From Nymphaea colorata (Eukaryota), in assembly GCF_008831285.2 (NCBI RefSeq), contig NC_045138.2, forward strand, positions 29,450,001-29,514,000: DNA of 64,000 bases, written 5' to 3'. The position numbers and the translations under genes were made by a program. Positions 16,055 to 64,000 of the stretch are shown here, piece after piece. Each line of letters begins with the position of its first letter. The first letter of the stretch is position 1. The notes under the pieces were generated by a model. The model was given only the letters and a program-made list of their open reading frames with translations. It had not been told where the DNA came from and ran no database searches.

Positions 16055-16486
16055 GGAAAGGGCAGAAAGAGGGAGCAGCTTTACACGAGAGAGAAGCAAG
16101 CTGCGTCTAGGGCAGCGTGAGAGAGAGTCAAGGACGGCAGGAAAGAGAGTGTGTAAAGATCGAGAGAGGGAGGGAGAGAAAGATGGAAACTTTCTTCTTC
16201 TCTTTTGGCGTTAACTTCTCAACATATCATTTTAGTAAAAGAAGGCTAACATTTAAAGAGAATAAAAAAAACTGAAAAACTTAACGAGTAAGTTTAGCAA
16301 CTCGTAAATCGTGCTTTCTCACTATCCCTCCCCTTCAACTTTTTCAGGTTCTGTCATTTTCACACACTTTCTCTTGTTTCCACTTTTCACTCCTTCACGC
16401 ACTCACGTTTTTTTTTTTTTTCTCTTTTTTTTCCACGAGCTCCACACGTTCTCACGAGCTCCTCCACTTCAGGAGTTAGAGCAACA
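16055..16486 (-). repeat. 3' LTR of minus-strand copia (terminal ~85 bp missing)
   Basis: Matches ~20868-21348. The TGTTGGCG... end seen at 20781 is absent. Confidence 0.9.
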
Positions 16487-16495
16487 ATCTCCCCC

Positions 16496-19630: not shown

Positions 19631-19633
19631 GTA

Positions 19634-20779: not shown

Positions 20780-20780
20780 A

Positions 20781-21348
20781 TGTTGGCGTTCTCCCGCTAT
20801 TTACACTCAATTCCTCTCTTTTGGCAAAATGAAGAGAGGGGACCGTAGGCTGCAACACACCAACGAGGGAAAGGGCAGAGAGAGGGAGCAGCTTTAGATA
20901 GAAGCAAGCTGCGTCTAGGGCAGCGTGAGAGAGAGAAGCAAGCTGCGTCTAGGGCAGCGTGAGAGAGAGTCAAGGACGGCAGGAGAGAGAGTGTGTAAAG
21001 AGCGAGAGAGGGAGGGAGAGAAAGATGGAAACTTTCTTCTCCTCTTTTGGCGTTAACTTCTCAACATATCATTTTAGTAAAAGAAGGCTAACATTTAAAG
21101 AGAATAAAAAAAAACTGAAAAACTTAACGAGTAAGTTTAGCAACGTTTAGCAACTCGTAAATCGCGCTTTCTCACGATCCCTCCCCTTCAACTTTTTCAG
21201 CTTCCGTCATTTTCACACACTTTCTTTTGTTTCCACTTTTCACTCCTTCACGCACTCACGTTTTTTTTTTTTTTTTTTTTTCTCTTTTTTTTTCTCACGA
21301 CCTCCACACGTTCTCACGAGCTCCTCCACTTCAGGAGTTAGAGCAACA
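20781..21348 (-). repeat. 5' LTR of minus-strand copia (568 bp)
   Basis: TGTTG...CAACA termini, 2 nt from the PBS TGGTATCAGAGCC. Confidence 0.92.
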
Positions 21349-25924: not shown

Positions 25925-26212
25925 CAGTGGCGGCATAGTCACATGTGGACTGGTGTGGGTAGGTGCCGGTTCTTTAAAACTCCTTTATTTTTATAGTGAG
26001 AAATTTAATATTTACTTTCATACATATACAAGTGTCCTTTTAAATATAAATGTTTATAAATAGGTCACTCTCCCTAAGCCAGCTCTTTAAAACTACTTTA
26101 TTTTCACATTGAGAAATTCAATATTTACTTCTATACATATACAAGTGCCCTTCTAGATATAAATGTTTATAAATAAGTGTCGCTCCAATTAATTTTTTTT
26201 GACTCCCCACCA
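25925..26212. mobile_element. hAT-like MITE with internal tandem duplication
   Basis: CAGTGGCGG left end and eroded CCCCACCA right end, with an 8-bp TSD CTTCTCAA at 25917-25924 and 26213-26220. Internal ~110-bp unit duplicated (~25970-26075 / 26083-26185). Confidence 0.6.
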
Positions 26213-28249
26213 CTTCTCAATCTTGTTACCTGTGATTTCACTCTGCTCTATCTCTTATATACTGTTGCACTATAAGATCGTGAATAGCCTATTCGGTACC
26301 ATACGGTCGACACACTAAAAACACAGTTGGTTTTAAACTAACTTTTAAAAAAATTAATTTTTTTGATCATTTTTAAACGATTGGTTTATGTGTTTGAATA
26401 AGAAGATGAAAATATACTTTTTTATAAATAACCTAGGAGTTGTAGGTCATTCACTTCCTTTTAAAAAACAATTTTATCTAAATGACTTCGACAAAACTCC
26501 CTTTTTATCATCTGAACGTGTTTGATGTGTAAAGCAAATTCACTTTTTACCTCGGCTGCTTCCCATCTTGCAATCCGTATTGAACTCATTCGTGAAAAAA
26601 GCTTGTCTGGAATGCTCACGGGTGGAAAGCTTGACAAAACCCGACCATTCATCATTATTATTAAATTTTTTTCATCATTATTATTAAATTATTTTCATGA
26701 TGAAGGTATTCTTTTTTCTAAATGTGTCAGACTATTTCACAATTTGCTTGCCAGCTTTAAAGTCATTTTGGTGATGAGCAGGAAAACTAAAAATTTTATT
26801 TGTGAGGGTCAAATTATAGTTTCAAAATTATAATATGTCAAAATAATATTTTTTTTTAAATTTTAATGGAAAACAACAATCTTTTTGAATTTAACATGTA
26901 AAATAAAAAAGTTAAAGGAGTGGGAGGAGGGTAAAGGTAGGGCCACTGCCGGCTCCTTCCGTGGTCCAATCGCTGGTGATGAGTGAATTAAGCACATTAA
27001 CTTTTAGTTTAATACCTTAAAACAATAAGATTGAGTTTTGATTCTTTGTGGATTTGAGATATGCCTTATTTTGATATCCACTATTCGATTTTAAACGTAT
27101 ATTAACATGTAGCATGAATTTCAAATCAGTGTATTGAGATCTTAAGGTTGTTAAAACACATCTTTTTTGCGTAGTCCGAGGCTATTAAACGCAATCTAAT
27201 TCATGGTGAATCTCTTTCCCAAAAACAAATGGTTTTGTTGATTGGTGACGCCTTGTCACAATTTGTTTTCAATGGATTTTCATTTTGTCAGCGTTCTTTA
27301 ACAAAAAGAAAAGCGTGAAATAGCGTATGAAAAATGCTTGGAGCAAAACAGAAAACTTAAAAAATCAATTTCGATCCAGGTGGATGACCGTGTGCGGCAC
27401 CCTCAAGAGAGAAAGGTTTGATCATGCAATATGGCTTTTAAGTTGGCAGATTATGGGAAGCACCACTGTTTGCTTGATAGTTAATCTCGAGGTAGAAGTG
27501 AATCAAGTTGACATGGACTCTTCTACCACTTTTTGCGTGAGGAAGCACCACCATTAAAAAAAAAAATGCAGACACAGCGGCACAAGCCCAAGATGCATTT
27601 CCACAATAGTTGATCTTTATAAACATGAGCTGCTCTTGGAAATAATTCTGATCGAGATCCTTTTTTTGTCAAAGCAGGGAAGTTAAAGAGAGAGAGAGAG
27701 AGATTTGCACCCATGGATAGTTTGAAACAATGTACTCTTAAGGGTGACATAAAAACTCTGCAAGACCTAGTAAACGAAGATGGACAAATTTTAGACAGAG
27801 TTCTGGAGGACTGGGAGGAAACCCCTCTCCACATAGCAGCCAGGATGGGACATGTTGAATTTGCAAGGTTGGTGCTGCAGCTAAAGCCGGAATTTTCTGC
27901 AGTCAAAGACCAGAACGGGCTCTACCCGCTGCACGTGGCCTCTGCACACGGCGATGCAGAGATTGCTAGAGAGATCCTCCGGAAAGTTGGAGAGAACCGC
28001 ATGACAATGGATGTCAACAGCCTATGCCTTCTCAAAGACAAAGATGGCAAAAATCCTCTACATATAGCAGCTCTCAGGGGCTCGAGAGAAGTGGCGGAGG
28101 TGATCCTAGCCGCCAACCCCAGCTGCCTGCAGGATGTGACTACCCAAGAAGAGACGGTCTTGCACTTGACTGTCTGCAATAATAGGGTGGAACTGCTGAA
28201 GTACTTCTTGGGTAAGAAAGATATAAGAAGCCTTGTTAACCGAAAGGAC

Positions 28250-28576
28250 TGTCACGCAAATTGGAGGAGATCAAGGGAGGAGATCAAGAACCGTTGAGGA
28301 GAACGTTGGAATTGAGGAGAACGTTGAAATTATATAAGGAAATAATATTTTAAGAAAGACCCAAATCTGCCTTCATCTTCTTTGTACCGTTGCCTCAACG
28401 AGTGACTATGGAACGCTTCCTATTATATTGTAATCTCATATAAAGAGCAAGTGTACCTTGAACAAAAACGATATAATGAAAAACAGAGCTCCTCCTTCTT
28501 CTACGGTGGATGTAGGCATCTAAGCCGAACCACGTAAATTCTGTTGTGATCTTTTTCTCTTTGGCTCAACTTATTA
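28250..28576 (+). repeat. 5' LTR (327 bp)
   Basis: Differs from the 3' LTR by a 13-bp duplication and 3 substitutions (by eye). Confidence 0.93.
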
Positions 28577-28623
28577 TGGTATCAGAGCATTATTCGTGAT
28601 CTTGGCATCCAGTCGTCTCCACC

Positions 28624-31600
28624 ATGGCCGAATCACAAATCAATAGGGATCAAGGCAGCAATTCAAGTGATGGTATAAGGAAGTCTACGGCTGATCAAAA
28701 TAACACCTTGAAGATCACAACAATGCTTCTAAATGGATCAAATTATCTAGGATGGGCGAAAGCAGCAATACTCTTTCTTAGTGGGCGATCAAAATTTGGC
28801 TACGTTACTGGTTGATCCAAAATTTGATGAATGGCAATCTGAAAATGATTTAGTCATGTCTTGGTTAATAAATTTCATGGAGCCTAGTGTTTCAAATATG
28901 CTTGTTTATCATGAAACGGCTAAGGATATATGAGATACTTTAAAGGAAGTATATGGGGAACAAAACAGTTTGGCTAGAGTTTATCAAATTCAATTAGAAC
29001 TTGCTCATCTCTCAATGGGAGACAAGTCGATACAATCTTATCTCAGCCAATACCGTAGTCTATGGGAGGAACTAATGCAATATCGCCCTGCTACAACTGA
29101 CCCAAATGTTTATAGACAACATTTGGAAGAAGATAAAATTTTTCGTTTCCTTGGTGGACTCGGAATAGAGTTTGAGAGTGTTAGAAGTCAAATACTCATG
29201 ACAAATCCATTGCCAAATTTTAATCAAGTTTGTCAAAGCATACAAAGAGAGGTTGCTCGCCGGAAAGTTATGAATCCGGAAAAGAAAAGTGAGGCTGCTG
29301 AAGATACTAGTGAAAAACTAGCGTATCAAACTCGTTCAGAACCACGGCCCAACAATTTCAGATCTGATATCAAAGGCGGTGAAAATGTGACCATCATGCA
29401 TAAAGGAAGAAATCGGTTAAAATGTTCATACTGCAAAAAGACTGGACACATTAGAGAAATGTGTTGGGAGCTAAATGGAAAGCCATCTTCAAAAGAGAAG
29501 TCACTTTCATCCAACAGCCCCAACACAGCCAACTTCATCACCCGTGAAGAGTTAGAAAAATTTTTCCAGCATTTTTCTAAGACAAATCTGGTTTCTACTC
29601 AGCCTATTGGAAATTCGTCTGAAGGTACGCACCATGCCTTCATTACTCATTCAAAAAATCTTGGATGGATCATTGATTCCGGGGCCACCGATCACATGAC
29701 CGGTGACCCCTCTAAAATAGTTAATTTAACTCTTGAAAAAAATCGGCATGTATTCACGGCCGATGGCACACCCATTCCTATAGAAGGCATTGGGGAATCT
29801 TGTTTCTTAAAATCAAATAAAAGTTCTTGTGTGCTTTATATTCCTAAACTTTCTGCCAATCTTATATCTATAAGTAAGATAACTAAAGATTATGACTGCT
29901 TAGCTATTTTCTCTCCAAAGAATGTGATTTTTCAGGACAAGAAGTCGAGGAAGGAGATTGGTAGAGGGTATGAGCACAACGGTCTATATGTCTTAGACAA
30001 CATTGAGGTTGGTCTTCTTGCTCGTGCGGAAAAGATATCTGATTACAAATTGTGGCACTCTTGGCTTGGTCATATTTCAGATAGGTCGCTGAAAATTCTT
30101 GTTCCTAACGTCAAACCTGATGGGCATTCTTGTGATGCATGTGAATTCTCAAAATCGACTAGATTACCTTTTCAAAACCCTGGAAAAAGGTTTGTAGAAA
30201 ACTTTGATTTAATTCATTCTGATGTTTGGGGCCCAGCCCCAGTTGAGTCTCATTCTAGATATAGATACTATGTTTCTTTTATTGATGATAAAACTCGCAT
30301 GACTTGGCTTTATTTTCTAAAAAATAAGAGTGATGTTGCTAAAACTTTTGAGGAATATTATGAGCTTGTATACACGCAATATGAGACCAAAATAAAAAAA
30401 TTACGGTCGGACAATGGAGGTGAATATGTCAATAAAATTCTTGATGATTTCATGAAAAAGAAAGGCATATGTCCCCAACTCACTTGTGCCGGTACTCCCC
30501 AACAAAATGGGGTTGCCGAACGCAAGAACCGACAATTGCTTAGTATTGCTAGGTCCCTTATGATGAACATGAATGTTCCCATCCGTTTTTGGTCTGAAGC
30601 AATAGGAACTGCTTGCTATATAGCAAATAGAATACCTAATTCGAGCATTAACGGTCAAATTCCAATTCAATTACTTCTAAACAAATCAGTTTCTATTAAT
30701 CATTTTAAAGTTTTTGGATGCAAATGTTTTGTTCATATTCAAGAAAAATTTAAGAATAAATTAGAAAAAAGAGCTATGAAATGCATTTTTCTTGGATATG
30801 CAAGTAAAAAGAAAGGGTTCAAATGTTATGAACCTCATTTAAAAAAATTCTTTGTGACTCGTGACGTAAAGTTTTTTGAGCAAGAACTGTTTTATGAGAA
30901 TGACGTTCAGGGGGAGACAAAAACATAAACAACTTGTTGACATTAGTCTCCCACAACCTTTGGTAAGCATAAGTAAGTATTCCAATGCAAATCAACTTCT
31001 TGGGAACCAAAATCAAAGTGACGACAATCAACATCCTCAGTCTAATGAAGCTGATCGTACTATTGTTCCTCAAGACAATGAAATATCTCCAAGGCCAACC
31101 CAAAAAGCCGTGACTGAGCAACTATTACGGAGATCGTCTAGATCCACCAAACCACCAACCAGGCTAAGTGATTTCTATACATACTTATCTTTTGACAAAA
31201 TTCATTCCATTGATGATTATCTGACTTTTGAAAATTTGTCAAAATCATATCGAGATTATGTATTGAATACTTACCACCATGAAGAGCCTAAGAATTTCTT
31301 GCAGGCAAACAAGGACCCAAGATGAAGAGACGCCATGAAAGAAGAACTAAAAGCACTATAAAGAAACCACACTTGGGAAATGGTGCCTCTACTAGAAGGA
31401 AAAAAGGTTGTTGGGTGCAAGTGGGTGTACAAAATAAAATATAGGAGTGATGGATCTGTCGAGAGGTTCAAGGCAAGGTTGGTTGCAAAAGGATATACTC
31501 AAACCGAAGGGATCGATTATAATGAAACATTTGCTCCAGTTGCAAAAATGAGCTCTCTCAGAATACTACTATCAGTAGCTTCAAACAAAAGGTGGGAACT

Positions 31601-32812
31601 TATGCAGTTGGATGTAAAAAATGCATTCTTGCATGGTGACTTAAATGAAGAAGTCTTCATGGAAACTCCAGAAGGCATCAAAAGTGAAAAGGGATATGTG
31701 TGTAAACTGAAGAAGGCCCTATATGGTTTAAAACAATCTCCCCGGACATGGTTCTCTTGACTCAGGCTCTTGTGAAAATTGGTTTTTCCAAAAGCACGTC
31801 TGACTATACCATGTTTATCTACAATCGTGCTTCTAAGGTCACCATATTGCTGGTTTATGTAGATGATATTATAATAACAGGAGACGACATTCAAAACATG
31901 ACACGAGTAAAAGAGTATCTCAATAAAGAATTTGAGATAAAAGACCTAGGAAGATGGAGATACTTTCTTGGCATTGAAGTGGCACAATCGGATAAAGGAG
32001 TGTTTATTTGTCAAAGAAAATACACTCTAGATCTCTTCAAAGAAACTGGTTACTTGGGGACTAAGTGTGCTGATACTCCCATGAAAATCAATTGCAAGCT
32101 AAGAAATGAAGAAGGGGAACCAGTTGAAAATGTTCAAAGTTTTCAAAGACTTATTGGAAAGCTTATCTATCTTACTGTGACTAGATCAGACATCACATAC
32201 GCAGCCAATCTTGTGAGTCAGTTCATGCATAAGCCTATGTCAACTCATGTAGAAGCTGCACATCGAATTCTAAAATGTTTGAAGGGGACTCTGGGGAGAG
32301 GAATCTTAATGAGAAGAAACGATTGTCTCAATGTCATTGGATATACAGATGCTGATTGGGTAGGAAATCCAAACGATAGAAGATCAACTTCAGGATATTG
32401 TACTTTTGTGGGTGGAAATCTAGTATCATGGAAAAGCAAAAAAAAATCTGTAGTAGCTCGATCAAGTGCAGAAGCAGAATATAGAGCCATGGCTACCTGC
32501 ACATGCGAGTTGATATGGACTAGAGCCTTATTAAAGGACATGAACATTGAACATAAAGAACCGATGAAATTAATGTGTGACAATATGGCGGCAATTCATA
32601 TCAGTGCTAATCCCGTCTTTCATGAAAGGACAAAACACATAGAAGTGGATTGCCACTTTGTTAGAGAAAAAATCCATAGTGGAATTATTGAAACACCTCA
32701 TGTCAGAAGCGAACATCAGTTGGCTGATATTTTCACAAAAGCTCTCAGCAAAGAAAGACATCACACTATTGCAAACAAGTTGGGACATATTGATATATGT
32801 GCACCAACTTGA
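28624..32812 (+). pseudogene. Copia gag-pol broken by several stops and frameshifts
   Basis: [80 protein letters not shown], spread over 5+ ORF pieces. Confidence 0.92.
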
Positions 32813-32821
32813 GGGGGATAC

Positions 32822-33135
32822 TGTCACGCAAATTGGAGGAGATCAAGAACCGTTGAGGAGAACGTTGGAATTGAGGAGAACGTTGGAATTATATAAGGAA
32901 ATAATATTTTAAGAAAGACCCAAATCTGCCTTCCTCTTCTTTGTACCGTTGCCTCAACGAGTGACTATGGAACGCTTCCTATTATATTGTAATCTCATAT
33001 AAAGAGCAAGTGTACCTTGAACAAAAACGATATAATGAAAAACAGAGCTCCTCCTTCTTCTACCGTGGATGTAGGCATCTAAGCCGAACCACGTAAATTC
33101 TGTTGTGATCTTTTTCTCTTTGGCTCAACTTATTA
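32822..33135 (+). repeat. 3' LTR (314 bp)
   Basis: TGTCACG...CTTATTA followed by the TSD AGGAC. Confidence 0.93.
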
Positions 33136-35432
33136 AGGACCTCAATGATAAGAGTGTCTTTAATTTGGCATCAGACTCCAACAACTTCGAGGTAACAACT
33201 CCCACCCACTTAATTTAGTTCAGGCTGAGTTTGGTTGGTTTGATTGAGGGGCCAAGGGCTTTGAGCTAGGTTTGACACAGTTGGACTGGCTCTAAGTCAA
33301 GTCCAGATAATTCTCTAAGATCCCGTGGCCTCTCCACTGAAATTCATGATTTTCATAAGTCTAACTATGGAACATGACTTGAATATCTAGAAGATATCGA
33401 CTGAAAAATACAAAATCAAAAATTTTCGGATGTGAATAGAAGGGACGACCATGGTGACACCATTTTTGGGTTTGCCATCAATCGGTAACAATTCTGAGGC
33501 AACAAGTTGAGTAACTCTAACTTAAGAGTTGGGCTCGATCGAGCTCATACTTTGAGCGTGGAATATGAAATGATCATTCAAGCTCAAGCTGCTAACTGGC
33601 GCTCCGTCGTCTGTTTTTGTCTATGCTGATAAAAAAACCTCACAGAAGGCAGAAGCAAATAATCCAACAGGTGCACTCTATCCACTTGACTCTGCGATTG
33701 GACTTAAAAAGATTCAAACTTGGGGAACTCGACTACAGTCACTTAAAAGAGGGGGTCTGAACTAGGCAGACCACCAAATATTTGATAAGTTGAGCACTGA
33801 TCAGTCCAATTTGGTACTAACTGGTCGGGTTGGCCATGATCAATTTGCTAGCTAGCTCAGATATTTAGGGTTAGTTTCTCCCCGAAGGGGTCTTAAAATG
33901 AGCAGAACCAAGCACTTTCCAGTTGCATTTAGGCCTGTGTGGTGGCATACAATAACCGTCGGAGTCGGTTCTGATAAGGACTAAAATTAAGGATTCATAC
34001 TGGTTCTTGGGTTTAATATATGTGGATGAATGGCCTAATTTGGACTAGATCTACCACAATTTTTTTTTATCAAATTTCACTTAAGCAGTTCTCAAATTGT
34101 ACATATGAGACTCTATGTTGAATGCTTAGTAAAAGGTCATGTACATGTTTATACAGGTAAAGGAAGCTGTTCGTTCGATTGAACATCTGCGGCAGGCTGG
34201 AAGCGCTGTGGATACGGAGGCCCAAAATCCTCCAGCTGTGCCATCTAGTGAAGGAGTAACCGATCGTTCCGCAGGGAACCATTCGAAGAAGCCTTTTTGG
34301 AGAAGAGCAAAACATTGTTGTTGGGGAACAAAATGAAATTAGGATGAGTGAGACGAGAGGCGCCATGATGGTCGTTAGTGTACCGATAGCTACTCCGCCC
34401 TTTAATATTTACTCGTATGTGGACGAAGATGCATATTACTAGAGCGCAGGCACTGCAGTTGTGTTTGTGATAGCTTACGCAGTGGGATTGTTTGCATCGT
34501 TGATCATCATAACCATTAGAAGGCAATTCATGATTTGGGTGTTGATGGTCATTATGTGGGTCTCCGTCTCCTACGTTGCGATTAGTTTCTCATTCGGATT
34601 GCATATCATAATGAGAGAGACAAACTTAAAATATGTAAGTGTGTCTTTGTTTTCCTGCATGGGGTTGTTTGCTTTGTTGCTCATATTGCACAAAGTGATT
34701 TGCTTGAGAATAACATGTGTGTATGCTGTCTAAATATGAGTGTAGCTAGGTTGTTCAACTGAGCGCTTAGCAAGATATATGTACTGCTCGTTCTTGTGCT
34801 CAAAATACAATATTATTGATGTGTTACCTATAAATCGGAAATGTTTGTACATAAAGAGTACACATGCCTAAAATAGAGAATATGTTAGATGCTTGCTCAA
34901 GGCGGACCATGGAGTACTTTCGAGACATTAAATGGTTGGCACCTTCACAAGCCTCTGAGAAGCCACCACATAGGCATCTGAATAGCAATTTTGTCTTTTT
35001 CCTAAAAAGATGACAGTTTTTTTTTTAAAAGGGTATTTTCTCGCTTTACCTATAGGAGGTTGCTAATTTTTGTTATCAAAGGCATTCTCATCATTTTAGC
35101 AAGAGGTTATTTTGTCATTAGTTCAGTTACCATGCTATAAATGATTAGGATTGATCATGTAATTCCTTCGAGGCTTTTGGTAATAGGAATGCAGCATTAC
35201 TTGAACCACGTGCAGTATGGTATAAATACTGAAGTTCGTTTTGTAAAAGCGGACAAACAGAACAGAACAGAACATAAGGCACATTCGACCTTCTGCACCT
35301 TCTCCATCTCTCTCTGTTTTCTGCTTAGTTTTCTTCGTTCTCTGCTAATTCTTGTGCTCCGTTCGACATATTTGGCTCTTTAATTCATAGTATCATGCTT
35401 CAAATTAGGCTAGGAAGAAAGAAGTGAGATAT

Positions 35433-36720: not shown

Positions 36721-38638
36721 TATATGCCATTAATTTATCCGGAATTTTCTTGCGTCAATATAGTCATCACTAAAAGATATTCTTAATAAAGAGAAAGAAA
36801 CAATTTTTCTGTAGGGACAAAAAAAAATGGCCAATATGGTCATCACTAAAGATATTCTTAGTTATGAGAAAAAGACATTTTTTTGTAAGGAAAAAAATTG
36901 AAAAAAATAAAGTTTTAAGATTCAATAAATCTCAAATGAAATGATTGTGTCATTTCCTATATGTAGATTGTTATAACCAGTGTATTTCTCTGAGTTGGCA
37001 TTTTTGTTTTTTTTTTTGTCATGTTCATATTGTTATTTCATACTCATGTCACCATTTCATCTCCATTATTTTATATCTCTGTCATTATATCATATTTATT
37101 ATTTTATATATTTATTATTATCTCATGTCATGTCATTATCTCATATCTTTCTTATTATCTTATGCTACTTTTTGTCATTATGAAAATGAGATAATGACAA
37201 AAATATTAGTATATATTCGTTGTGTATGTGCAATGTTAAAACATTGAAGTAAACGTAATAAGATGTGCGCTGGTTGTGTACAGTGGCGTAGCGTACATAA
37301 GTTGATCTACCTTTGAATTATAAATACTCTTCAATGCCAATATCTCAAAAGAGAAACACATGGTTTTGTTTAAGTTGGGAGAGATTAGAGATAAGACCCA
37401 AGAAATGGAAGGAGGAGTCTGAGCTCGATCGTTTCCCATCCCCACCCCCGAATCCTCATCATTCAGCTTAACATTCATTGGACTTTTCTAATCACCTCGT
37501 TTAATATTCCAAAGGACGATCGCATTACTTTTGTGTTGCTCATCTTAAAGGAAAAGATGGAAATATGATAGCTGGATTTGATTGGGATGGGACACATGGT
37601 TCCACTCTCATGATCAAAGTTCAACTTAGGCGTGTGGTCCCCTTCTTTGACTGAGTCTAAAGAGGTCGGAAGACTCTCCCTTGTTCTTGTTTATGGAGTT
37701 GAGTTATGTGGGTATCAACCAGTGCCTTGCTCTATGTTCCTTGAATTGTCTCCTTTTGTTCATAAATGCTTTACTTTCAACCGTAACGCTAACGACGGGT
37801 GACATGTGCAGCGAATTTTCTTTTGCGTAGTCATCACTAAAGATGTTCTTGGTTAAGAGGTCTTCCTTCCAGTCGTAACGTTGACGTCGGTTGACTGAAA
37901 TTTTTTCAGCGTCATACGAAATATGTTCTTGGTTAAGAGAAAAACGTGTCGTCCTGTTTCTTGTTTCTTGAGTCATGATGTTATTGGTTAGGAGAAAAAC
38001 GTGTAGCCTTGTTCAACGCGTGGTTGTGTTCAGTGGTGGAAATCTTGCGTTTCCTGTTTTATAAGAGCTGGAACGGGTTATGTGCACCGAGAGAGAAAGA
38101 GCTGAGCCGGTCAGACTGGCTTGCTTGGAACTGCCGACGGCAGCCACACTATCTGGGAGCAGTTGACACAAATTCGGAGGTAACTCTCTCCTCTTTAGTT
38201 GGCAGCTGGTTTGGTTGAAGAATAGTTGATTACGGTTGAATGGTAACGTCAAAGAGTATTCCATACTCAACTGCTTTGATCTATATCCACATTGCTGGGG
38301 CAACTCTAAGTCAAGACTGTAAGCGGGTACTGTTTCCAAGTTTTTTAGTCGGTTTTGAAAATGTGGTCTCTTTGTTTAGGACCTTAGGTGGCACATATAA
38401 AACCTCGTTTTTCATAAATAACCAAAAGAGAGGTAAAGTTTATCACTCCCTTTTATAAAACCAGGATTTCTCAAACTCAAAATTTCCTCAAATGTCCTAT
38501 TTTGGTGGCACTCAACCTCCCTGACAGTCTGGTATCAAATCCAGGTTTTGGGTTTTGCCTCCAACCGTCCATTTTATCGATTATGATAAAGGATGAAAAT
38601 TATGGATCGATAAGGATTCTTTCGTTTAGTGTATATAT

Positions 38639-39367
38639 ATGTATGACATAAATGGCCTAACTTGGGTTGAATCCACTGGCGCAGCCAAGTGTAGGCAGTC
38701 GGACCTAAACCTGCTGGAAGCCGGCCGTAGTTCCTCCAGTGGTGTTGCACCTGTTGACAGTCGAAGAAGGTCAATGGATGTGGAGGCCCAACATCCTGCT
38801 GTGCCAGTGCCACCACGTGAAGGACTAGAAGCTCAAATGAGGCTGAGCGAGAAGAGAGGAGCGATGATGATTGTGAGCGTGCTGATAGCAACGCTGACTT
38901 ACCAGGCCACCCTCAACCCTCCTGGTGGCTTCTGGCAGGATGACAAGCTGCGGAACGCATCCAATACCACCTTATCAGTACAACCCTTTGCAGATGACCA
39001 CTTCGCAGGCATAGCAATCAATGCTCGATACGAAGGCTCCTACAACAACTTTGTGAAATGTAATGCGGTGGGATTATTTGCATCGCTGGCCACCATCTTG
39101 CTGTTGACAAGCGCCACAACCATTGAGCGGCCGATCATGATCTGGGGGTTGATGCTTGTAATGTGGGTCTCCGTCTTCTCCGTTGCATTTAGCTTCGTCT
39201 TCGGAGTACGCTTGATCGCGGCTGGAACGATGACAAAAACTCTAGCAGTGCTTTTGTTATCCTTTATCTCGCTCCTTGGCATACTGCTTGTAGTGCACAC
39301 ATCGATAGGCGTGAGGGAGCTTCGAAGCTGGCTAAAGAATAAAATGTCATGCCGTGGAGCTGCTTAA
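38639..39367 (+). CDS. ANK-PGG copy D: stand-alone PGG-domain membrane protein ORF (242 aa), no ankyrin exon
   Basis: RLSEKRGAMMIVSVLIATLTYQATLNPPGGFWQDD plus 3 further hydrophobic segments, uninterrupted. The first ~20 codons derive from sequence that is intronic in copy E. Confidence 0.7.
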   Translation: MYDINGLTWVESTGAAKCRQSDLNLLEAGRSSSSGVAPVDSRRRSMDVEAQHPAVPVPPREGLEAQMRLSEKRGAMMIVSVLIATLTYQATLNPPGGFWQDDKLRNASNTTLSVQPFADDHFAGIAINARYEGSYNNFVKCNAVGLFASLATILLLTSATTIERPIMIWGLMLVMWVSVFSVAFSFVFGVRLIAAGTMTKTLAVLLLSFISLLGILLVVHTSIGVRELRSWLKNKMSCRGAA

Positions 39368-51144: not shown

Positions 51145-51459
51145 GCCTAATTTGAGTTGAATCCATTGACGCATCCAAGCGTAGGCACTGACCGGGACTG
51201 TTTGCGTATTAGTGCCATTCAGCCATTTTATTATATATTTATTTTCTCAACCGGAAGTTTTTTAATTTACTTAATACGTATAATTAGTACTCTTCAGTAC
51301 AAAATTTTCCGCTGGGCCTCTGGTTGGATCTAGCATTTTTTTGGCCAAATTTCACTTGAGCGAATCTCAGATTGTATATATTAGACGCTTGATTGCTGAT
51401 CACGAGGCCAAAGGGTTCTCTTATTTACTCTCTCTTTCTCATTATATATTATATTATGC

Positions 51460-52152
51460 ATGCAGATAATGGACGCTCTTGAATCGAACCCAAACCTGCT
51501 GGAAGGCGGCTGGAGTTTCAGTGGTGTTGCACCTTTTCACAGTTCAAGGTCGCTGGATGTGGAGAGCCGACATTGTTGTGCTGTTTCGCCTGGTGAAGGA
51601 GTGCAAATCGAAGCTAGGCTGAGCGAGAAGAGAGGGGCGATGATGATTGTGAGCGTGCTGATAGCAACGCTGAGTTACCAGGCCGCCCTCAACCCTCCTG
51701 GTGGCTCCTGGCCGGATAACAAATCTGACTCCGCATCCACTGCCGCCTTACTAGCACCCTTCCCCCCTGCGGTTGTCGTTGGAGATGAACACACTGCAGG
51801 CACAGCAATCAATGCTACACGCTTCCCCTACGCAGCCTTTGTTGTGTCTAATGCGGTGGGGTTATTTGCATCACTGGCCACCATCTTGCTCTTGACAACC
51901 GCCAGAACCATTAAGCGGCCGATCATGATGTGGGGGTTGATCTTTATTATATGGGTCTCCGTCTTCTCAGTTGCGTTGAGTTTCGTCTTCGGATTAATGT
52001 TGATCGCACATGACATGCCGTTGATTGTATCTCAGATTTTTTTGTCGTGCATGGGGCTATTTGCCATACTGCTCATATTGCCGACGGCGATATGCGTGAG
52101 GAAGCTTATAGGATGGGTAAGGAAACAACTGTCATGCCGTAAAACAGTTTAA
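51460..52152 (+). CDS. PGG-domain exon of copy E, uninterrupted 230-aa ORF with its own in-frame ATGs
   Basis: RLSEKRGAMMIVSVLIATLSYQAALNPPGGSW plus 3 further hydrophobic segments. ATGs at 51460 and 51469. Confidence 0.6.
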   Translation: MQIMDALESNPNLLEGGWSFSGVAPFHSSRSLDVESRHCCAVSPGEGVQIEARLSEKRGAMMIVSVLIATLSYQAALNPPGGSWPDNKSDSASTAALLAPFPPAVVVGDEHTAGTAINATRFPYAAFVVSNAVGLFASLATILLLTTARTIKRPIMMWGLIFIIWVSVFSVALSFVFGLMLIAHDMPLIVSQIFLSCMGLFAILLILPTAICVRKLIGWVRKQLSCRKTV

Positions 52153-56096: not shown

Positions 56097-56688
56097 TTAA
56101 AGGGCTGATACGAGCCTTAGTCCGAGTAGGCCTAACCAAGGCCAAAGGCACGGCCACAGTGAGAGATCACGGCTCAATGGAATTAAACTTCGAGCCTAGA
56201 GCAAATGCAGTGGGAGGTGCGGGAGGATATGCAACGGCTCTAGGACATGAATGAACTAGGTGAAGACCAGCAATTGGGGGAATCCGCGAGTTAGGATACT
56301 AGATCCATAGGACTTCTTTGGTATAGGCCATGGTCCATTCTTGAGTCGTATCGAAACCCAAGTCTCTAGAGTCGGTCTAGGACGAGTCTAGGGAGGTCTC
56401 TTGGCTGAATTGAGCTCAGCTCAATGAGGTTAAGGGATGTGTCAAGTCCGAAGTTTGGGCGGCAACCCGGACGAGGTCCCCACCTTGAGCTCACAAGGCT
56501 CAAGGGGCGTCTAGCTAGGACTTAGCCGTTTTTCACTTCTTGATTTGCTTTATTTGAGTTTGCGCCAATTCGGTTTTGGATTCAAACTTACCAAGGCGGG
56601 TTGTGCCTTGGATCCGTTTTGCTTTAGCATGTTCTGGATTTGGATTTGGGCTGGTTCCATGCATGGGAACCAGATTTATGTACTCATG

Positions 56689-56696
56689 TATATAAG
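56689..56696 (+). promoter_or_regulatory. Putative LTR TATA box
   Basis: TATATAAG ~585 bp into the LTR, followed by a CT-rich tract typical of plant 5' leaders. Confidence 0.5.
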
Positions 56697-59171
56697 GTTT
56701 TGATTCATGTGTAAATGGAGGGAATTTTGGGAAATCAAGGTCATTTGCTTCTTTGCTCTCTCTCTCTCCTCACTTCTCTCTCTCTCTTCTCGTGTCTCTC
56801 TCTCTCTCTCTCTCACGTTCCCTCCAATCTCTTCTCCCAAGACCAGCATGCTGGCCCTCTACTTCCCCTTCCCCCTCACGTCTTCCTCTCCTCTCCTTCC
56901 CAACTCCTCACTATCTCCCCTCTCTTTCATTTACATCAATTCTCGTTGAAGAAGAAGGTGAGGGCTTTCTCTTGGGTGAGCCACGGCCCTAGGAGTTATC
57001 ATCGTCTTCATCTTCGCATCTACCCAGCCACGTCTTGGGTGCAATATCTCTGCTACATCAGAGATATTGGAGGCCTAAGTTGAACAAGGAGGCTGCGTCT
57101 TCATCCAAGGAAGGACAGCAAACCCACGGTTTCCTCATACAAGGTTAGTTCTTGGATTCCTAAGGTGAAAGCTAAGCAACTACGTTGGTTTGGTTTGATC
57201 CAAGGTTTGACTTACAAGAAGAGGAGAAGTCTCGAGTCACAGCCGAGATTCCCTTCTTTTCCACGGTTGAAACTTGATTTAAACTAAGTTTTACGTGTCT
57301 TAGAAGATCCTAGGCATTGAGGCTTTCCTAGTTGAGAAATCACTCAAGGAAACGGCACAAGAAGAGTCGATCGATTCTAGTTTTCATCCGCGGTCCATCT
57401 CTGGAATTTCGCCGGCAAAATCAGAATCCCATCCTCAAGAAATCACGGTGAGACCATCTTGGACATGGGAATGGACCATATAAGGTGATTCCACGCAAAG
57501 AAAGAAGAAGATACACATTGGTTTCGCGAAGAACGGCCTAGGCGATAGCAAGCACCAAGTCACCGGGAACTTCTGGTTTTCCGGCGACCTCTGCCATAAT
57601 TCCGGCCACATTTGGGGGATTCTGGTCATCATCACCCAAGGACCAAAGTGCCCTTCCTTGCCACGAAGTGGGACCATCATTTCCAAGGGTAAGTCCGTCC
57701 AAAAGTACTCCAAGGAGATATCGCATGGAGAGGAGATTTTCTAGGCGAGAATTAAGGGGAAACTCCTACATTCTAGCTTCAAAAAGTGGTACGAGCTTCA
57801 TCCTTACCCATCTAAGTCTCTCCTAGCCCTTCATCCAGATCCTTAGGAGAAGATCCGACCCTTGATTTGCACGTGATTTGGAAGAGAATCCCCACATTTG
57901 GAATCATCATTCCACAAGGCGCCACCTCGCCACATTTGACTACATTGGAGGAGCCGGCGCCACTAGTGCCCACATTTGGAGGGATTTGCTCTTTAGTTTA
58001 GGTGATTCAATCATTAACCATCCCTAGATCCCAGCCACATCACATCCCACTTACCACCTTTGAATTTTCAGCCTTAGATCTAGAGGATTATCCTAGGTTC
58101 AAGTGTAGGAGTCCACCTTTTGATCCCACGTCAAACTCACTCACGTGATCCCTAACCCTCCTTAGTTCCTCATTAGCTCTCTCATTTAAACCCAAGCCAC
58201 TCGTTCAATCATCCTTGAACCTAACCACCAATTCCTAATCAACATCCCACATTCCCTTGTCTTAAGCCACCTCATTCTAGACCTCACACCCTTAGATCAT
58301 CTTCCCTTACACCGTAGCCGAAGCCGTCCAAGCCCCTATCGCTCCTAACCGGCCCTAAGCCAGCCACACTTAGGATCATTACCAAGCTCTACGGCCGAGC
58401 TTTCCTCTATTGACTGTAGTTAGGTAATTCCTCAGCTAAGACCAAGCTGAATCCACCCATCCCCAGCCACGACTACAGCATTTGGTGTGCACCCTTGGGC
58501 ATTTCATCCACTCGCCCAAGCGAATTGAGGTTGCTATCACCAAGCAACCGGATCCCGTGTGCTACCACGGCACTCAGCCAGGTGGGCTGAGCTAAGAGGC
58601 TCTCTCTCAGCTATATCTAGAGCCTACTGCCACACCCGGAGCAGCAGCATTTGTATCAGCTCCGTCAAAACCAGCAGCAGCAACCGAGTTGAAGAGAAGA
58701 CATCAAAGACTTTACCAGCGATCTTCTCCAACTTGGCGTCTTACTTGGCGTTGCAGCACCTTCCACCTTGGTGTCCCGATTTTCTCAGCTACAACCTGAC
58801 GTCTGGAATTCATCCTCAACAGCACCTACAGCAGATCATCAAAGAATTCCAGAAGATTCATCAAATGAACCCCGAGCAAGCCTTGGGGAGGTACTTCATT
58901 TAGACTAGTTAGATTTGCTATTTTCCTTGCATAGTTTTGAATCGCTTCCGCATTTGTCCAGTATTCCTGTAGTTTTTCGGTGGCCTAGAGCCTAAGATCC
59001 GGCTACAAGGAGTGTGTTTGGTCTGAGTCTAGCCTTAGTTTCCTCTTTGAGTTGTGTTGGTTCAATCTTTAGGCGTCTTTCGACCCGTGTGGACCCTCTA
59101 CGAGGATCTTGGGTGTAGGATCGACTCTAGGACTGGGCTGTCGCCTATACCGGAGTTAGGTCCTACCAATT

Positions 59172-59184
59172 TGGTATCAGAGCC
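59172..59184 (+). other. Primer-binding site 1 (tRNA-iMet)
   Basis: TGGTATCAGAGCC. Confidence 0.85.
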
Positions 59185-59340
59185 AACGTGGAGGATTCCG
59201 TTGCTTGTTTACATCTTGTGAATTCAAATTCTAGAGTTTATGTTGCTCATAAGTGCAAGAAAGATCGATTTTGGTCAAAGCGGGTGAAAGTTGGAAAGGA
59301 GAGTTCCAAACTTATCCGGCTGATACCAAACCTATCAGTT

Positions 59341-59353
59341 TGGTATCAGAGCC
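59341..59353 (+). other. Primer-binding site 2 (tRNA-iMet)
   Basis: TGGTATCAGAGCC. Confidence 0.85.
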
Positions 59354-59915
59354 ATCTTGAGAGGCCGCCGCACTCAGTTTTCAGATTCCAGCAGTGTTAG
59401 TTTGGTTTGATGGTAGCATAGCAGAAACTCATCCTCTTCAGCCTGCATTTTTTTCAGTTTCTGAAAAACCAGAAACTACGCCGGATTCCGGTGGCCGGCG
59501 CTGTCAGATCCGGCATCAGAATTGGTCAAGGTTAGGCTCGTTGGAAGCGCCTACGTCTCAGGAATCTCCAGTCCAAATTTCAGATTTTTTTGAGTTACGG
59601 GTGAAAAGTTATGATTTTTTGAGTGGACCCCTATCACTGGGGGAGTCCTGCGCGGTTGAAGAGCAAGCCTAGGCGTGACTTTCAGAAGAACGAGTGCTTT
59701 CCTGGAGCAGAGTTAGAGCTTGATCTTGGTGGCGTTGGATTCCTTATCGTGTCTAGTATTTTGCTACCAAGTTTCGTGATTTTTGGACATCGAGTTAGAG
59801 AGTTACAGAATTTATAAGTGTCGTGGTTTTCAGCTTTTAGTAGTTCAGTTTGGTGTTTGAAATAGATAGCTTAGAAAGTTTTTAAGCATTTGTTTTGATT
59901 TAAGAGAAGGCAAGA

Positions 59916-61706
59916 ATGATGGAAGAAGGTGCGTATCCCAGAAGTTTAGATGTTGATTTAGTGTTTAGCACCTATTCTTACGGAAAACTCGTGGAAGAGA
60001 AGATTTTAGTTCACAGAGAAGATTGGAGTTACGGCCCACAGTTCATCAGTTTCTTGATTGGACAAAACCCGAGATGCGACATCATCCTACGAGATGTCAG
60101 TGTAATGGGTTATCATTGTGTGATTGAAGTGGACAAGGGGACCTGTAACATTAGGATCACCAATAGGACCTTAGTGGGTCGACTTAGGGTTGCAGGAAGA
60201 GTAGTCAACCTGGGTGAGCTTTTACAAGTTTATCCAGGAGAAGTGATACAAATAGGAGACATGAGTCATAAGTTTGTGTTGGAAGAAATCCCAGCACCCA
60301 AACCCGTCAAACAAGTAGGGAAACCTGGAAATAGTAACCCAGGAAAGTCATCTCCTAACATTGAAGAGATGATACGACAAGCGCTCTCAAAGATGGATGA
60401 GATATTGGACAACGTGAAACAAGAGAAGCCTCACGTGGAGTTAAGGAGCAACACGTCCAAGGGCATGGTTCCGACCAACATGAAGAGCAAAGAGCTACTC
60501 GGACCAGCTACTCCGCCACCTCGCACGGAGCACATGAGCAAAGGCAACGGAAGCAAGAACCAAGGCATCATGAGTGCGGTGTCACAACCACCTCCAAAGA
60601 AAACTGACAACACTAAAGCCTACCGCAAGGCCTACTCAACTAAAGGCCTTACTCAAAAATCCGAGGTCCCTCAGACCAATTATCAACCTAAGAAAAGGGA
60701 CGAAGTAAGCAGGAACAAGAGAGATGAAATGCACCAAGCGGTAGAGACAATCAAATGTGAAGTGCCGAACAATAGCCTCAAGGGCAAGGGTGTTCATGAT
60801 CAAGCTATAGTTGAGGAGCCATCCAACAACTCAAGTGATGGCGAATCATTGAAGACATGGACTACCAATGAGTTATTGGCTGAAATAGAAAGCAAGTGTC
60901 AAGAGTGCGAATCTATTGAAGAGACACTTCCAAGTGAAGATTCTTTAGGATCACATGAAGAAAGAGCTTCAATCTCTACAAACTCAATGCACGCGTCTAG
61001 TCCCAACCAAGCATTAGATACGTACAAAGAAGAATCTTTAGTGTGTACAGCTCTAGCTTCACCCAACATGATGGAAGTGGAAGAATCAAGCGAGCTTCAA
61101 CCTCTTGAGATCATACAGCCAGAAGACAAGGTGGAGCTAATCCGTTGTCAAATGCCAGAAGATCTTAACCTTGAAGATCAAAGGAATGATGTAGAAAAGG
61201 CAAGCAGCATGGACTCTAATGATCCCATGGAAATAGAAGGAGATGAAGAGTCCAGCCAGCGAAGCGAGGATCATCCATCATATCCTTCCACAATAGAAGA
61301 TAAGGCAGATCATAAGGAGGGTGGAGCGGATTCAACTGACTGCTCACAGATTGTGGAAGAGTTACAACTACAAGCAACCCAAGAGTTAGCTTTCCACATG
61401 ACGTGCTCACACCAAGACCAAGGTAGCGGACCACGGGTGGAGCAACTTGAAGGAATACCCTCTTGTCAGAATCATCCACAGAGCGAGGATACGTGGTTAG
61501 CCCCTATTGAGATGAGTGAAAGTGATCAACATGCTAAGCTTCGTTGCATCCAAAAGTGGCAAGAGGAAGTGCAAGAGGAATTAGTAGGATTCTTTCTGAG
61601 TTTGAAGATGATTTCTTGTGCAGTTCTGATGATGATCACACTATTACTTTGGAGCCAAGACCATCATTCAACCAATATAAGGCTCCTCAAGAAGATCCAC
61701 GAGTGA
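59916..61706 (+). CDS. ORF1 of the LTR element: N-terminal FHA-like domain plus long basic then acidic low-complexity region (596 aa)
   Basis: FLIGQNPRCDIILRDVSVMGYHCVIEV...IRITN...RVAGRVV...QVYPGEVIQIGDMSHKFVL (60051-60281) follows the FHA pattern hhIGR.P.CDI.L....S..H..I...GD.I.IG. Confidence 0.75.
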   Translation: MMEEGAYPRSLDVDLVFSTYSYGKLVEEKILVHREDWSYGPQFISFLIGQNPRCDIILRDVSVMGYHCVIEVDKGTCNIRITNRTLVGRLRVAGRVVNLGELLQVYPGEVIQIGDMSHKFVLEEIPAPKPVKQVGKPGNSNPGKSSPNIEEMIRQALSKMDEILDNVKQEKPHVELRSNTSKGMVPTNMKSKELLGPATPPPRTEHMSKGNGSKNQGIMSAVSQPPPKKTDNTKAYRKAYSTKGLTQKSEVPQTNYQPKKRDEVSRNKRDEMHQAVETIKCEVPNNSLKGKGVHDQAIVEEPSNNSSDGESLKTWTTNELLAEIESKCQECESIEETLPSEDSLGSHEERASISTNSMHASSPNQALDTYKEESLVCTALASPNMMEVEESSELQPLEIIQPEDKVELIRCQMPEDLNLEDQRNDVEKASSMDSNDPMEIEGDEESSQRSEDHPSYPSTIEDKADHKEGGADSTDCSQIVEELQLQATQELAFHMTCSHQDQGSGPRVEQLEGIPSCQNHPQSEDTWLAPIEMSESDQHAKLRCIQKWQEEVQEELVGFFLSLKMISCAVLMMITLLLWSQDHHSTNIRLLKKIHE

Positions 61707-62545
61707 ATCGTGAAGGCCCAATGGCTAAGAGTGGGCACATTGAATCGTATGAGAACAAGGAAAGATCTTTGTCCACCCATTCTCTATTACAACAACAGAT
61801 GATACATCCTAAGGAGGGTGGACAACAACAAAATGAAGAGGTGATTCACAGAGATAAGAATGAAAAACTCTACCCAAAAAGATGGAGAGCATTCCAGTAC
61901 TCAGAGTCACCAAATTGCAATGAAGAGATGTGGAACCCCTCGAGTTCATGTGAGGATTACAAGTCGGAGTCACCAACATCAATTGACTCCAACGACATGA
62001 GCGCAACTGAGGTGCAATGGGCAGTACAGAGTAATTGTAAACAGAAAGACTACATCATCAACCAACAAGTACTACAAGCAGGTGGGCGCCTATGGCAAGC
62101 CCACGACAGAGGGAAGGCCCTCGCACATCAGGAGGGCACTATTGAGCAGCTACAAGGGCTGCAAAAGAGGGCTATAGGGCAACTCCCAAGGGATTATAGT
62201 CCTAAACAAGTGCAAAAACCACTACAACATGGTGGTAGAAAGTGGCAACCACATGACCGTGGTAAAGCCATGTCAACGAATGAGATCCAGAATGATGAAA
62301 GGCTGCTTGGGCAACCAATGAAGCGAATTGGACAGTTACCTCGAGACTATGGTCCAGACACATTGACCATAGCTAAACTCAGAGTTAAAAGGGCCATGTT
62401 CAAGGTTTATTCAAGAGGCCCAAGAAGATGTTTCCTCCATCTTAGGAACTCAGTGAAGGTGTTACCCAGAGACTATGGACCAGGGAGGAAACACAAGGTG
62501 AAAGATGACTGCGTGCGTCAGAGCCACCAAGAAACAAGTTCATAA
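61544..62545 (+). CDS. ORF2 of the LTR element (333 aa as called), probable frameshifted continuation of ORF1, with HDRGKA / LPRDY repeats
   Basis: Overlaps ORF1 in the -1 frame. Contains ILSEFEDDF...DHTITLEP and ~50-aa repeats. Stops 38 nt before the 3' LTR. Confidence 0.7.
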   Translation: MHPKVARGSARGISRILSEFEDDFLCSSDDDHTITLEPRPSFNQYKAPQEDPRVNREGPMAKSGHIESYENKERSLSTHSLLQQQMIHPKEGGQQQNEEVIHRDKNEKLYPKRWRAFQYSESPNCNEEMWNPSSSCEDYKSESPTSIDSNDMSATEVQWAVQSNCKQKDYIINQQVLQAGGRLWQAHDRGKALAHQEGTIEQLQGLQKRAIGQLPRDYSPKQVQKPLQHGGRKWQPHDRGKAMSTNEIQNDERLLGQPMKRIGQLPRDYGPDTLTIAKLRVKRAMFKVYSRGPRRCFLHLRNSVKVLPRDYGPGRKHKVKDDCVRQSHQETSS

Positions 62546-62569
62546 TGAGCTTGGGGACAAGCTCGATTT

Positions 62570-62581
62570 AAGGAGGGTGGA
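62570..62581 (+). other. Polypurine tract
   Basis: AAGGAGGGTGGA, 2 nt before the TG of the 3' LTR. Confidence 0.8.
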
Positions 62582-62583
62582 TC

Positions 62584-64000
62584 TGATACGAGCCTTAGTC
62601 CGAGTAGGCCTAACCAAGGCCAAAGGCACGGCCACAGTGAGAGATCACGGCTCAATGGAATTAAACTTCGAGCCTAGAGCAAATGCAGTGGGAGGTGCGG
62701 GAGGATATGCAACGGCTCTAGGACATGAATGAACTAGGTGAAGACCAGCAATTGGGGGAATCCGCGAGTTAGGATACTAGATCCATAGGACTTCTTTGGT
62801 ATAGGCCATGGTCCATTCTTGAGTCGTATCGAAACCCAAGTCTCTAGAGTCGGTCTAGGACGAGTCTAGGGAGGTCTCTTGGCTGAATTGAGCTCAGCTC
62901 AATGAGGTTAAGGGATGTGTCAAGTCCGAAGTTTGGGCGGCAACCCGGACGAGGTCCCCACCTTGAGCTCACAAGGCTCAAGGGGCGTCTAGCTAGGACT
63001 TAGCCGTTTTTCACTTCTTGATTTGCTTTATTTGAGTTTGCGCCAATTCGGTTTTGGATTCAAACTTACCAAGGCGGGTTGTGCCTTGGATCCGTTTTGC
63101 TTTAGCATGTTCTGGATTTGGATTTGGGCTGGTTCCATGCATGGGAACCAGATTTATGTACTCATGTATATAAGGTTTTGATTCATGTGTAAATGGAGGG
63201 AATTTTGGGAAATCAAGGTCATTTGCTTCTTTGCTCTCTCTCTCTCCTCACTTCTCTCTCTCTCTTCTCGTGTCTCTCTCTCTCTCTCTCTCACGTTCCC
63301 TCCAATCTCTTCTCCCAAGACCAGCATGCTGGCCCTCTACTTCCCCTTCCCCCTCACGTCTTCCTCTCCTCTCCTTCCCAACTCCTCACTATCTCCCCTC
63401 TCTTTCATTTACATCAATTCTCGTTGAAGAAGAAGGTGAGGGCTTTCTCTTGGGTGAGCCACGGCCCTAGGAGTTATCATCGTCTTCATCTTCGCATCTA
63501 CCCAGCCACGTCTTGGGTGCAATATCTCTGCTACATCAGAGATATTGGAGGCCTAAGTTGAACAAGGAGGCTGCGTCTTCATCCAAGGAAGGACAGCAAA
63601 CCCACGGTTTCCTCATACAAGGTTAGTTCTTGGATTCCTAAGGTGAAAGCTAAGCAACTACGTTGGTTTGGTTTGATCCAAGGTTTGACTTACAAGAAGA
63701 GGAGAAGTCTCGAGTCACAGCCGAGATTCCCTTCTTTTCCACGGTTGAAACTTGATTTAAACTAAGTTTTACGTGTCTTAGAAGATCCTAGGCATTGAGG
63801 CTTTCCTAGTTGAGAAATCACTCAAGGAAACGGCACAAGAAGAGTCGATCGATTCTAGTTTTCATCCGCGGTCCATCTCTGGAATTTCGCCGGCAAAATC
63901 AGAATCCCATCCTCAAGAAATCACGGTGAGACCATCTTGGACATGGGAATGGACCATATAAGGTGATTCCACGCAAAGAAAGAAGAAGATACACATTGGT
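62584..64000 (+). repeat. 3' LTR (truncated by the window end)
   Basis: No mismatch seen versus 56106-57522. The ORF track shows identical peptides at offset 6478. Confidence 0.93.

Follow-up and report, generated by a model that had tools for sequence, protein, structure and literature searches.

The end of a 64,000-nucleotide stretch of the Nymphaea colorata genome (assembly GCF_008831285.2, contig NC_045138.2, positions 29,450,001 to 29,514,000, forward strand; the whole stretch is hereafter the window, and positions are counted from its first letter) holds a long terminal repeat (LTR) retrotransposon at 56106-64000 whose single sense coding region begins with an FHA domain. Our analysis suggests that this element belongs, as a young copy, to an old, chromovirus-derived family without pol, and that its FHA protein may serve as a phospho-independent, cis-acting adaptor for packaging by a helper, a mechanism to which we give a probability of roughly 0.45. 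The anatomy and family history, those of an old, diversified and pol-less lineage, are taken together highly probable, and a one-off capture is unlikely given the spread of the family.

A young LTR element without gag-pol domains

The element at 56106-64000 is a recently inserted LTR retrotransposon. It has two direct LTRs that start with TG (TGATAC at 56106 and 62584), together with a primer-binding site (PBS) and a polypurine tract (PPT) adjoining them. The LTRs are identical at all 1417 comparable bases, the comparison running only up to the window end, where the 3' LTR is incomplete, and the insertion is therefore young. This bears out the original prediction, made from the letters alone, of a young element with TG-starting LTRs, a Met PBS and a PPT. 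At least 7.9 kb of it lies inside the window, and with 3-kb LTRs the whole would measure about 9.5 kb. Its principal features are as follows.

56106-64000, + strand: LTR element, recognized by its LTRs, Met PBS and PPT; the window edge cuts the 3' LTR
56106-59168, + strand: 5' LTR, about 3.06 kb, matching 62584-64000 over 1417 bases; its 3' end is inferred, with 59337 as the alternative
59919-61706, + strand: first frame of the single open reading frame (ORF), 595 amino acids (aa), from ORF reading; frame break near 61.59 kb
59952-60293, + strand: predicted FHA beta-sandwich (residues 12-125) without the phosphothreonine-binding Arg, Ser and Asn, from Pfam, a structure model and Foldseek
61538-62545, + strand: second frame (335 aa), which supplies the C-terminal portion of the ORF and is homologous to the C-terminal parts of relatives P0002 and P0003
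62081-62482, + strand: repeated short protein motifs, GGRxWQxHDRGKA twice and LPRDY[GS]P three times (62183, 62336, 62462)
62549-62583, + strand: chromodomain-tail remnant overlapping the terminal PPT (62570-62581), from tail-pattern and profile comparison
62584-64000, + strand: 3' LTR, cut by the window end, from its identity to the 5' LTR

The original prediction had placed the PBS at 59341 behind an LTR of about 3 kb. A Met-type PBS does lie there, but a second one lies at 59172, and the LTR most likely ends near 59168, which gives an LTR of about 3.06 kb and an internal region of about 3.4 kb with two PBS. This end is favored because a single DNA contig (run X1, record 1) is continuous across 59165-59497 and 15 RNA reads from another copy depart from the element sequence behind 59165.

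The coding region spans 2.6 kb (59919-62545) and is read here in two overlapping frames, one of 595 aa counted from its first ATG and one of 335 aa. The break between them, near 61.59 kb, is probably private to the window copy or an assembly error, since each of the four DNA runs has contigs that depart from the window at that point, in X1 with their entire depth. The encoded protein is basic at residues 128-300 and over its last 160 aa.

Capsid, protease, reverse transcriptase (RT), RNase H and integrase are all absent from the element. In six-frame motif scans the plus strand showed no zinc knuckle and no motif of protease, YxDD or integrase, seven element-derived queries matched no gag-pol Pfam family, and an NCBIfam search with six proteins returned nothing relevant. 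When the six frames of the element were compared with a profile derived from 15 long gag-pol segments of natural chromoviruses, the PPT tail was the sole match. The motif scans, Pfam and the chromovirus profile thus agree with the original prediction that the internal region lacks zinc knuckle, protease, YxDD and integrase. Having no copying enzyme of any kind, the element needs a helper for every one. A reading of LPRDYGP as a remnant of the integrase GPY/F motif was considered and is not supported, as no profile matched it.

An FHA fold that has lost its phosphothreonine pocket

Profile and modeled structure indicate that the N-terminus of the ORF is a genuine FHA fold, as had been proposed from its residue pattern. 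Residues 46-113 match Pfam FHA PF00498 with 30.0 bits (E 7e-7; cut-off 20.7), and an AlphaFold2 model built from a 20-row family alignment reached a predicted confidence (pLDDT) of 85.4, the prediction from the single sequence being poor (pLDDT 46). Foldseek returned 89 PDB matches at E<=0.001, with an FHA fold in all rows among the matches listed and the kanadaptin FHA ranked first (E 2.4e-6). A viral fold library gave three matches at E<=0.001, all generic and FHA-like. The kanadaptin-type likeness that the original prediction had seen by eye draws weak support from that top rank, but in VIA-align 50 FHA-fold entries were largely tied at Z 11-13 (up to 13.3). The PS1 likeness presumed along with it would make PS1 a candidate donor.

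The domain nevertheless appears to be non-canonical and without phosphothreonine reading. The canonical binding set consists of the Arg after Gly, the Ser of SxxH, and the Asn or His of the beta6-7 loop, with roles taken from the descriptions of Rad53, PS1 and kanadaptin in excerpts of PMC3071787 and PMC4157861. At these positions, as set by alignment, the window copy carries Gln49, Met63 and Val86. Over 29 family domains the Arg is kept in 9, the Ser in 1 and the Asn in 4, and all three together in none; the structural Gly and His are present in 27/29 and 28/29, and a His-Pro-Ser loop in 20/29. With the pocket lost, the window protein is, to judge from these residues, not a canonical phospho-reader, and the suggestion in the original prediction of a decoy that reads phospho-signals becomes unlikely for the same reason.

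The protein searches gave no donor for the domain, as none of the matches at E 0.001 or better was an FHA protein of a plant host; the sole non-family FHA matches were three tandem-FHA proteins, two of them with bacterial names, which are omitted with their cluster mates from the family counts. A first word-indexed protein search with residues 1-200, which yielded 445 candidates, contained no match.

An old and diversified family of pol-less relatives

Protein searches recovered 26 gene models, all named Nymphaea thermarum, that carry the same FHA domain; among 1.84 billion representatives, 23 of 26 matches were N. thermarum models. The nearest relative is 72% identical, the median identity of the FHA domain is 32%, and 25 of 27 near-complete domains run without an internal gap over 116 columns. 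Neither a capsid domain nor a pol Pfam family was found in any of the 26 models, and the layout without pol is seen in each of the two main clades of the FHA tree. Seven models end in a tail like that at the window PPT, with 274-731 aa from FHA start to PPT tail, and an LPRDYGP-type motif is likewise present in 7/26. P0003 reads from LTR through PBS and PPT into a second LTR, and P0012 and P0013 each hold two tandem FHA domains. P0001, which is 87% identical to the C-terminal part and includes a copia gag fragment, looks chimeric and does not enter the family counts.

Behind the tail, six different peptide read-throughs point to different LTRs. Because these peptides vary between subfamilies and no model matches the window LTR or leader, it appears that the LTRs turned over while the ORF stayed. 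The 26 relatives, with the long-term constraint described below, sustain the earlier proposal of a non-autonomous family that keeps its ORF. Four close FHA models (P0005, P0010, P0033 and P0034) sit, at locus numbers 25915-25927, within a single 330-kb contig of N. thermarum and may form either a tandem element array or a domesticated cluster.

At the level of raw sequence, the internal region was present in part in at least 20 sequencing runs (ten organisms and one plant metagenome), three of which contained half of its words or more, with no RNA run among those listed. Four DNA runs yielded 299-515 contigs each, with a similarity that ranged from above 99% to below 90%. In X7 and X8 the FHA segment was covered by fewer and shallower contigs than the rest of the ORF, and no contig joined across it among 15 of 33 joints; a sister family with a more diverged FHA, or with none, may exist there, which we treat only as a lead. 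Fifty pattern matches in viral contigs included no relative, and neither this FHA nor element DNA occurred in any of 42 metagenome loci.

Descent from a chromovirus gag-pol frame

The original prediction had taken the ORF for free-standing accessory cargo, and this part of it does not stand: what the relatives retain suggests that the ORF descends from a chromovirus gag-pol frame. With profiles built from autonomous chromovirus loci, a gag knuckle was detected behind the FHA domain in P0017 (17.1 bits) and weakly in P0024 (6.5 bits), the best of 1600 shuffles reaching 5.2, and these two models belong to different main clades. P0034 retains a chromodomain stub (16.3 bits vs 4.3 in shuffles). 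The tail pattern was found in 43 stretches within the 42 metagenome loci, most of which read as the chromodomain end of a gag-pol frame. The marks of a chromovirus-derived non-autonomous element are thus spread over the family, with the tail in the window and 7/26 relatives, the knuckle in 2/26 and the chromodomain stub in 1/26. The autonomous Reina frame of gag, protease, RT, RNase H, integrase and chromodomain is absent from the element, which has the tail remnant only. Because the FHA domain lies upstream of the knuckle, and given the stub and the tail, the ORF is best read as a gag-pol husk with FHA where the capsid would be.

By resemblance, and not by an RT tree, the clade of the helper or ancestor would be Reina-like. 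Locus L038 encodes gag, protease, RT, RNase H and integrase in a single frame, and L009, with a repeat spacing of 5.1 kb, a Met PBS and a short LTR, matches the Reina element sizes given in an excerpt of PMC6317226. In organism A, 46 contigs share the last bases of the element from 62547 and then diverge; since they continue upstream into other sequence, the same PPT end is used by other families. Seven loci (L032:1-2630, L036, L041, L017, L020, L037 and L040) carry a chromovirus PPT tail with no open chromodomain frame before it and are possible other non-autonomous derivatives.

Selection and expression

Comparison across the family supports long-term constraint on the ORF at the protein level. 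Under a neutral null at like identity, both frames remained free of stops in 0.2-1.2% of runs, and the mismatches were less conservative than those observed, with a BLOSUM score of -0.71 to -0.88 vs an observed value of -0.45. Among the three LPRDY[GS]P copies in the window element, whose residues are kept although their synonymous sites approach saturation, the proportion of synonymous differences (pS) was 0.56-1.16 vs 0-0.15 for non-synonymous differences (pN), although these motif windows were chosen by residue identity and the full 50-codon unit gives pS 0.74 and pN 0.56. The LTRs of relatives seem to drive transcripts.

Among the outcomes that the original prediction had named as speaking against it, none came out cleanly: the FHA is matched by profile and structure and no gag match was found for the ORF, and only neutrality among copies has some footing, with 25 recent variants compatible with it.

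A proposed adaptor and its alternatives

In the mechanism that we favor, RT, RNase H, integrase and capsid would be supplied in trans by a chromovirus with the same Met PBS and PPT tail. The ORF protein would bind the RNA that encodes it through its basic stretches (and through the knuckle in relatives that keep one), while contact with helper Gag, or with a host factor present where particles assemble, would be made by the FHA surface together with the LPRDYGP repeats. The adaptor would in this way bring the element's own RNA into the particles of a Reina-like helper. A cis-acting role is proposed because the retention of the ORF across many separate LTR families is most simply explained if it benefits its own RNA, and because the ORF appears to descend from Gag; Gag acts on the RNA that encodes it. 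More tentatively, and by analogy with phage satellites that carry interference proteins, the whole could be a satellite lineage in which the capsid was swapped for a captured, de-phospho-sensitized FHA, and whose many LTR families, the product of a long diversification, each make a helper-hijacking adaptor and carry extra plus-strand primer sites.

Several observations weigh against the adaptor reading, besides the weaker ratio over the full 50-codon unit. Neither the window copy nor 24/26 relatives has a knuckle, so that charge alone points to RNA binding, and no complete helper was seen from the same genome. The relatives are gene models; annotation selects open frames, and predicted introns could hide pol. 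The 25 recent coding substitutions, drawn from 40 of 1223 rows, comprise 8 synonymous and 17 non-synonymous changes, as expected under neutrality (P 0.12-0.41), and both of those within the FHA domain are synonymous. Lastly, in three runs with LTR reads from diverged copies (13, 3 and 452), and with about 6% of each run read, zero RNA reads fell on 59392-62472.

A protein directed at the host instead, as a pseudo-FHA decoy or a family-specific anti-silencing factor that aids transcription or transmission in the nucleus or in meiotic cells, would account for the host-type fold and for the fast joint divergence of protein and LTR, to which the VANC proteins of VANDAL DNA transposons offer a comparable case. 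The His-Pro-Ser loop in 20/29 domains and the top Foldseek rank of kanadaptin would suit a kanadaptin/DDL/PS1 type; the FHA protein PS1 is meiotic (excerpt of PMC3071787), and a nuclear location is given for extra ORFs in other plant elements (excerpt of PMC7264820), both of which favor such a role. We nevertheless regard it as rather unlikely, as the phosphothreonine pocket is lost, no plant host FHA is found at E 0.001 (the outside matches being the three tandem-FHA proteins only), the frame appears to derive from gag-pol, and, were the factor to diffuse freely, copies that lack the ORF could exploit it.

The knuckle and chromodomain remnants, the near-neutral recent variants, and an annotation that may filter out pol-bearing models or hide pol in predicted introns would also fit an autonomous FHA-Gag-Pol chromovirus lineage in which the FHA is an accessory domain under selection, the pol-less elements being repeated deletion products and passive carriers. 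This too is unlikely: a capsid or pol domain occurs in 0/26 models, the internal repeats appear to be under protein-level constraint, and the C-terminal LPRDYGP region adjoins the tail in both clades and in the pol-free DNA of the window, which argues that pol was lost before the radiation. Still less probable is a passive, Bs1-like capture of a host gene, or a host FHA family that sits in LTRs by chance, with a frame that has no role in transposition. The lack of RNA reads on the ORF, the frame break in the window copy and the four models with close locus numbers on one 330-kb contig, which could be a tandem host cluster, agree with it, but 29 domains at a median identity of 32% remain in frame and fold, 7/26 models end in the element PPT tail with one reading through the PBS and both LTRs, and the identical LTRs speak for recent movement.

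Priming sites and the rest of the window

Further features of the element concern priming.

59172-59184, + strand: PBS 1 (Met-type), 3 bases after a CA, from a sequence scan
59320-59349, + strand: 12-bp hairpin, predicted to occlude PBS 2 (region z -3.0; 1/200 shuffles equally stable)
59341-59353, + strand: PBS 2 (Met-type), whose downstream letters are common to the distant relative P0003
59354-59918, + strand: non-coding leader, from sequence reading
61314-61325, + strand: internal copy of the 12-base PPT, an exact DNA match in frame
61811-61822, + strand: second internal copy of the 12-base PPT, an exact DNA match in frame

The two PBS lie 169 bases apart and belong to a 34-base local duplication, and the pair (59172-59353) could allow a choice of priming site or mark recombination between families. 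The terminal PPT (62570-62581) directly adjoins the 3' LTR start at 62584. Exact DNA copies of its 12-mer stand at 61314, 61811 and 62570, the rest of the window having none, and internal PKEGG words, the protein reading that matches the PPT, are found in 9/26 relatives, so that the family as a whole may carry additional sites for plus-strand priming. In run X24, 452 plus-strand reads came from diverged LTR copies at 56464-56715 and 58770-59165; many of them start at 56546, 56665, 58770 or 58982, preceded by a loose end that resembles an adapter, and some exit the LTR into other sequence.

The host neighborhood of the insertion consists of PGG-domain genes (ankyrin-transmembrane type) clustered in tandem, with at least four copies at 7949-8341, 34335-34600, 38630-39367 and 51400-52152. 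Two Ty1/copia elements also lie in the window. One, on the minus strand at 16087-21281, measures about 5.2 kb; it has a gag frame of 388 aa, a pol frame of 1045 aa and LTR pieces 95-98% alike. The other, on the plus strand at 28276-33134, has 300-bp LTRs identical at 297/300 positions, a Met PBS at 28577 and a pol broken up over three frames, and interrupts an ankyrin-repeat gene at 27629-28297.

Comparison with known systems

A pol-less LTR arrangement that carries an FHA domain was not found described in the literature searched. FHA is not among the 12 extra-ORF domains in the excerpt of PMC6317226 (threshold E<=1e-10, at least five elements), nor is it mentioned in the portions consulted of PMC7264820 and PMC11963269, and it is likewise absent from the main text of the paper on the water-lily genome (PMC7015852). 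Full-text searches returned no description of FHA in an LTR element and zero records for Nymphaea, FHA and retrotransposon together, with the proviso that unseen supplements could mention an FHA expansion. Non-autonomous LTR elements have been thought either non-coding or Gag-keeping; a long-lived pol-less lineage with a selected host-type signaling fold would show that such parasites can evolve proteins of their own, and the FHA domain would offer a small folded handle on how a non-autonomous RNA wins helper particles. For annotation the matter is practical, as 7/26 N. thermarum models bear the name 'FHA domain-containing protein' and would count as host genes.

As to the domain itself, canonical FHAs (kanadaptin 4h87, DDL 3vpy, NIPP1 2jpe, Rad53 FHA1 and plant PS1) have the same beta-sandwich, with the structural Gly and His in common, but grip phosphothreonine with the Arg, Ser and Asn/His that the element FHA has lost, and identity to solved FHAs is 12-25%. 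As to its setting, the Ogre, Retand and Athila extra ORFs and maize Bs1 (excerpts of PMC6317226, PMC7264820 and PMC11963269) likewise place a non-gag-pol protein, in some cases host-derived, in an LTR element. In those excerpts, however, the extra ORFs (plant mobile domain, Transposase_28, Athila ORF1) stand mostly beside an intact gag-pol and are often antisense, and Bs1-type transductions are described in few copies, unlike the FHA family. Reina chromoviruses share the Met PBS and a chromodomain tail over the PPT, and the knuckle spacing is the same in two relatives, whereas the excerpt of PMC6317226 gives them a mean length of 5.5 kb, describes them as autonomous and lists no extra ORFs for them.

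The closest parallels are found among non-autonomous elements. TR-GAG elements (excerpt of PMC4350172) also read LTR, PBS, one sense ORF, PPT and LTR, with a gag-derived ORF and recent activity, but they are shorter than 4 kb and keep a recognizable Gag, whereas the element here is about 9.5 kb, with 3-kb LTRs, an FHA and no capsid domain. LARD elements (excerpt of PMC6696364) are likewise longer than 4 kb, with long LTRs and no gag-pol domains, and are moved in trans, but their interior is drawn as non-coding where that of the present element is a conserved coding frame. The element is therefore like both TR-GAG and LARD elements, yet fails a defining feature of each.

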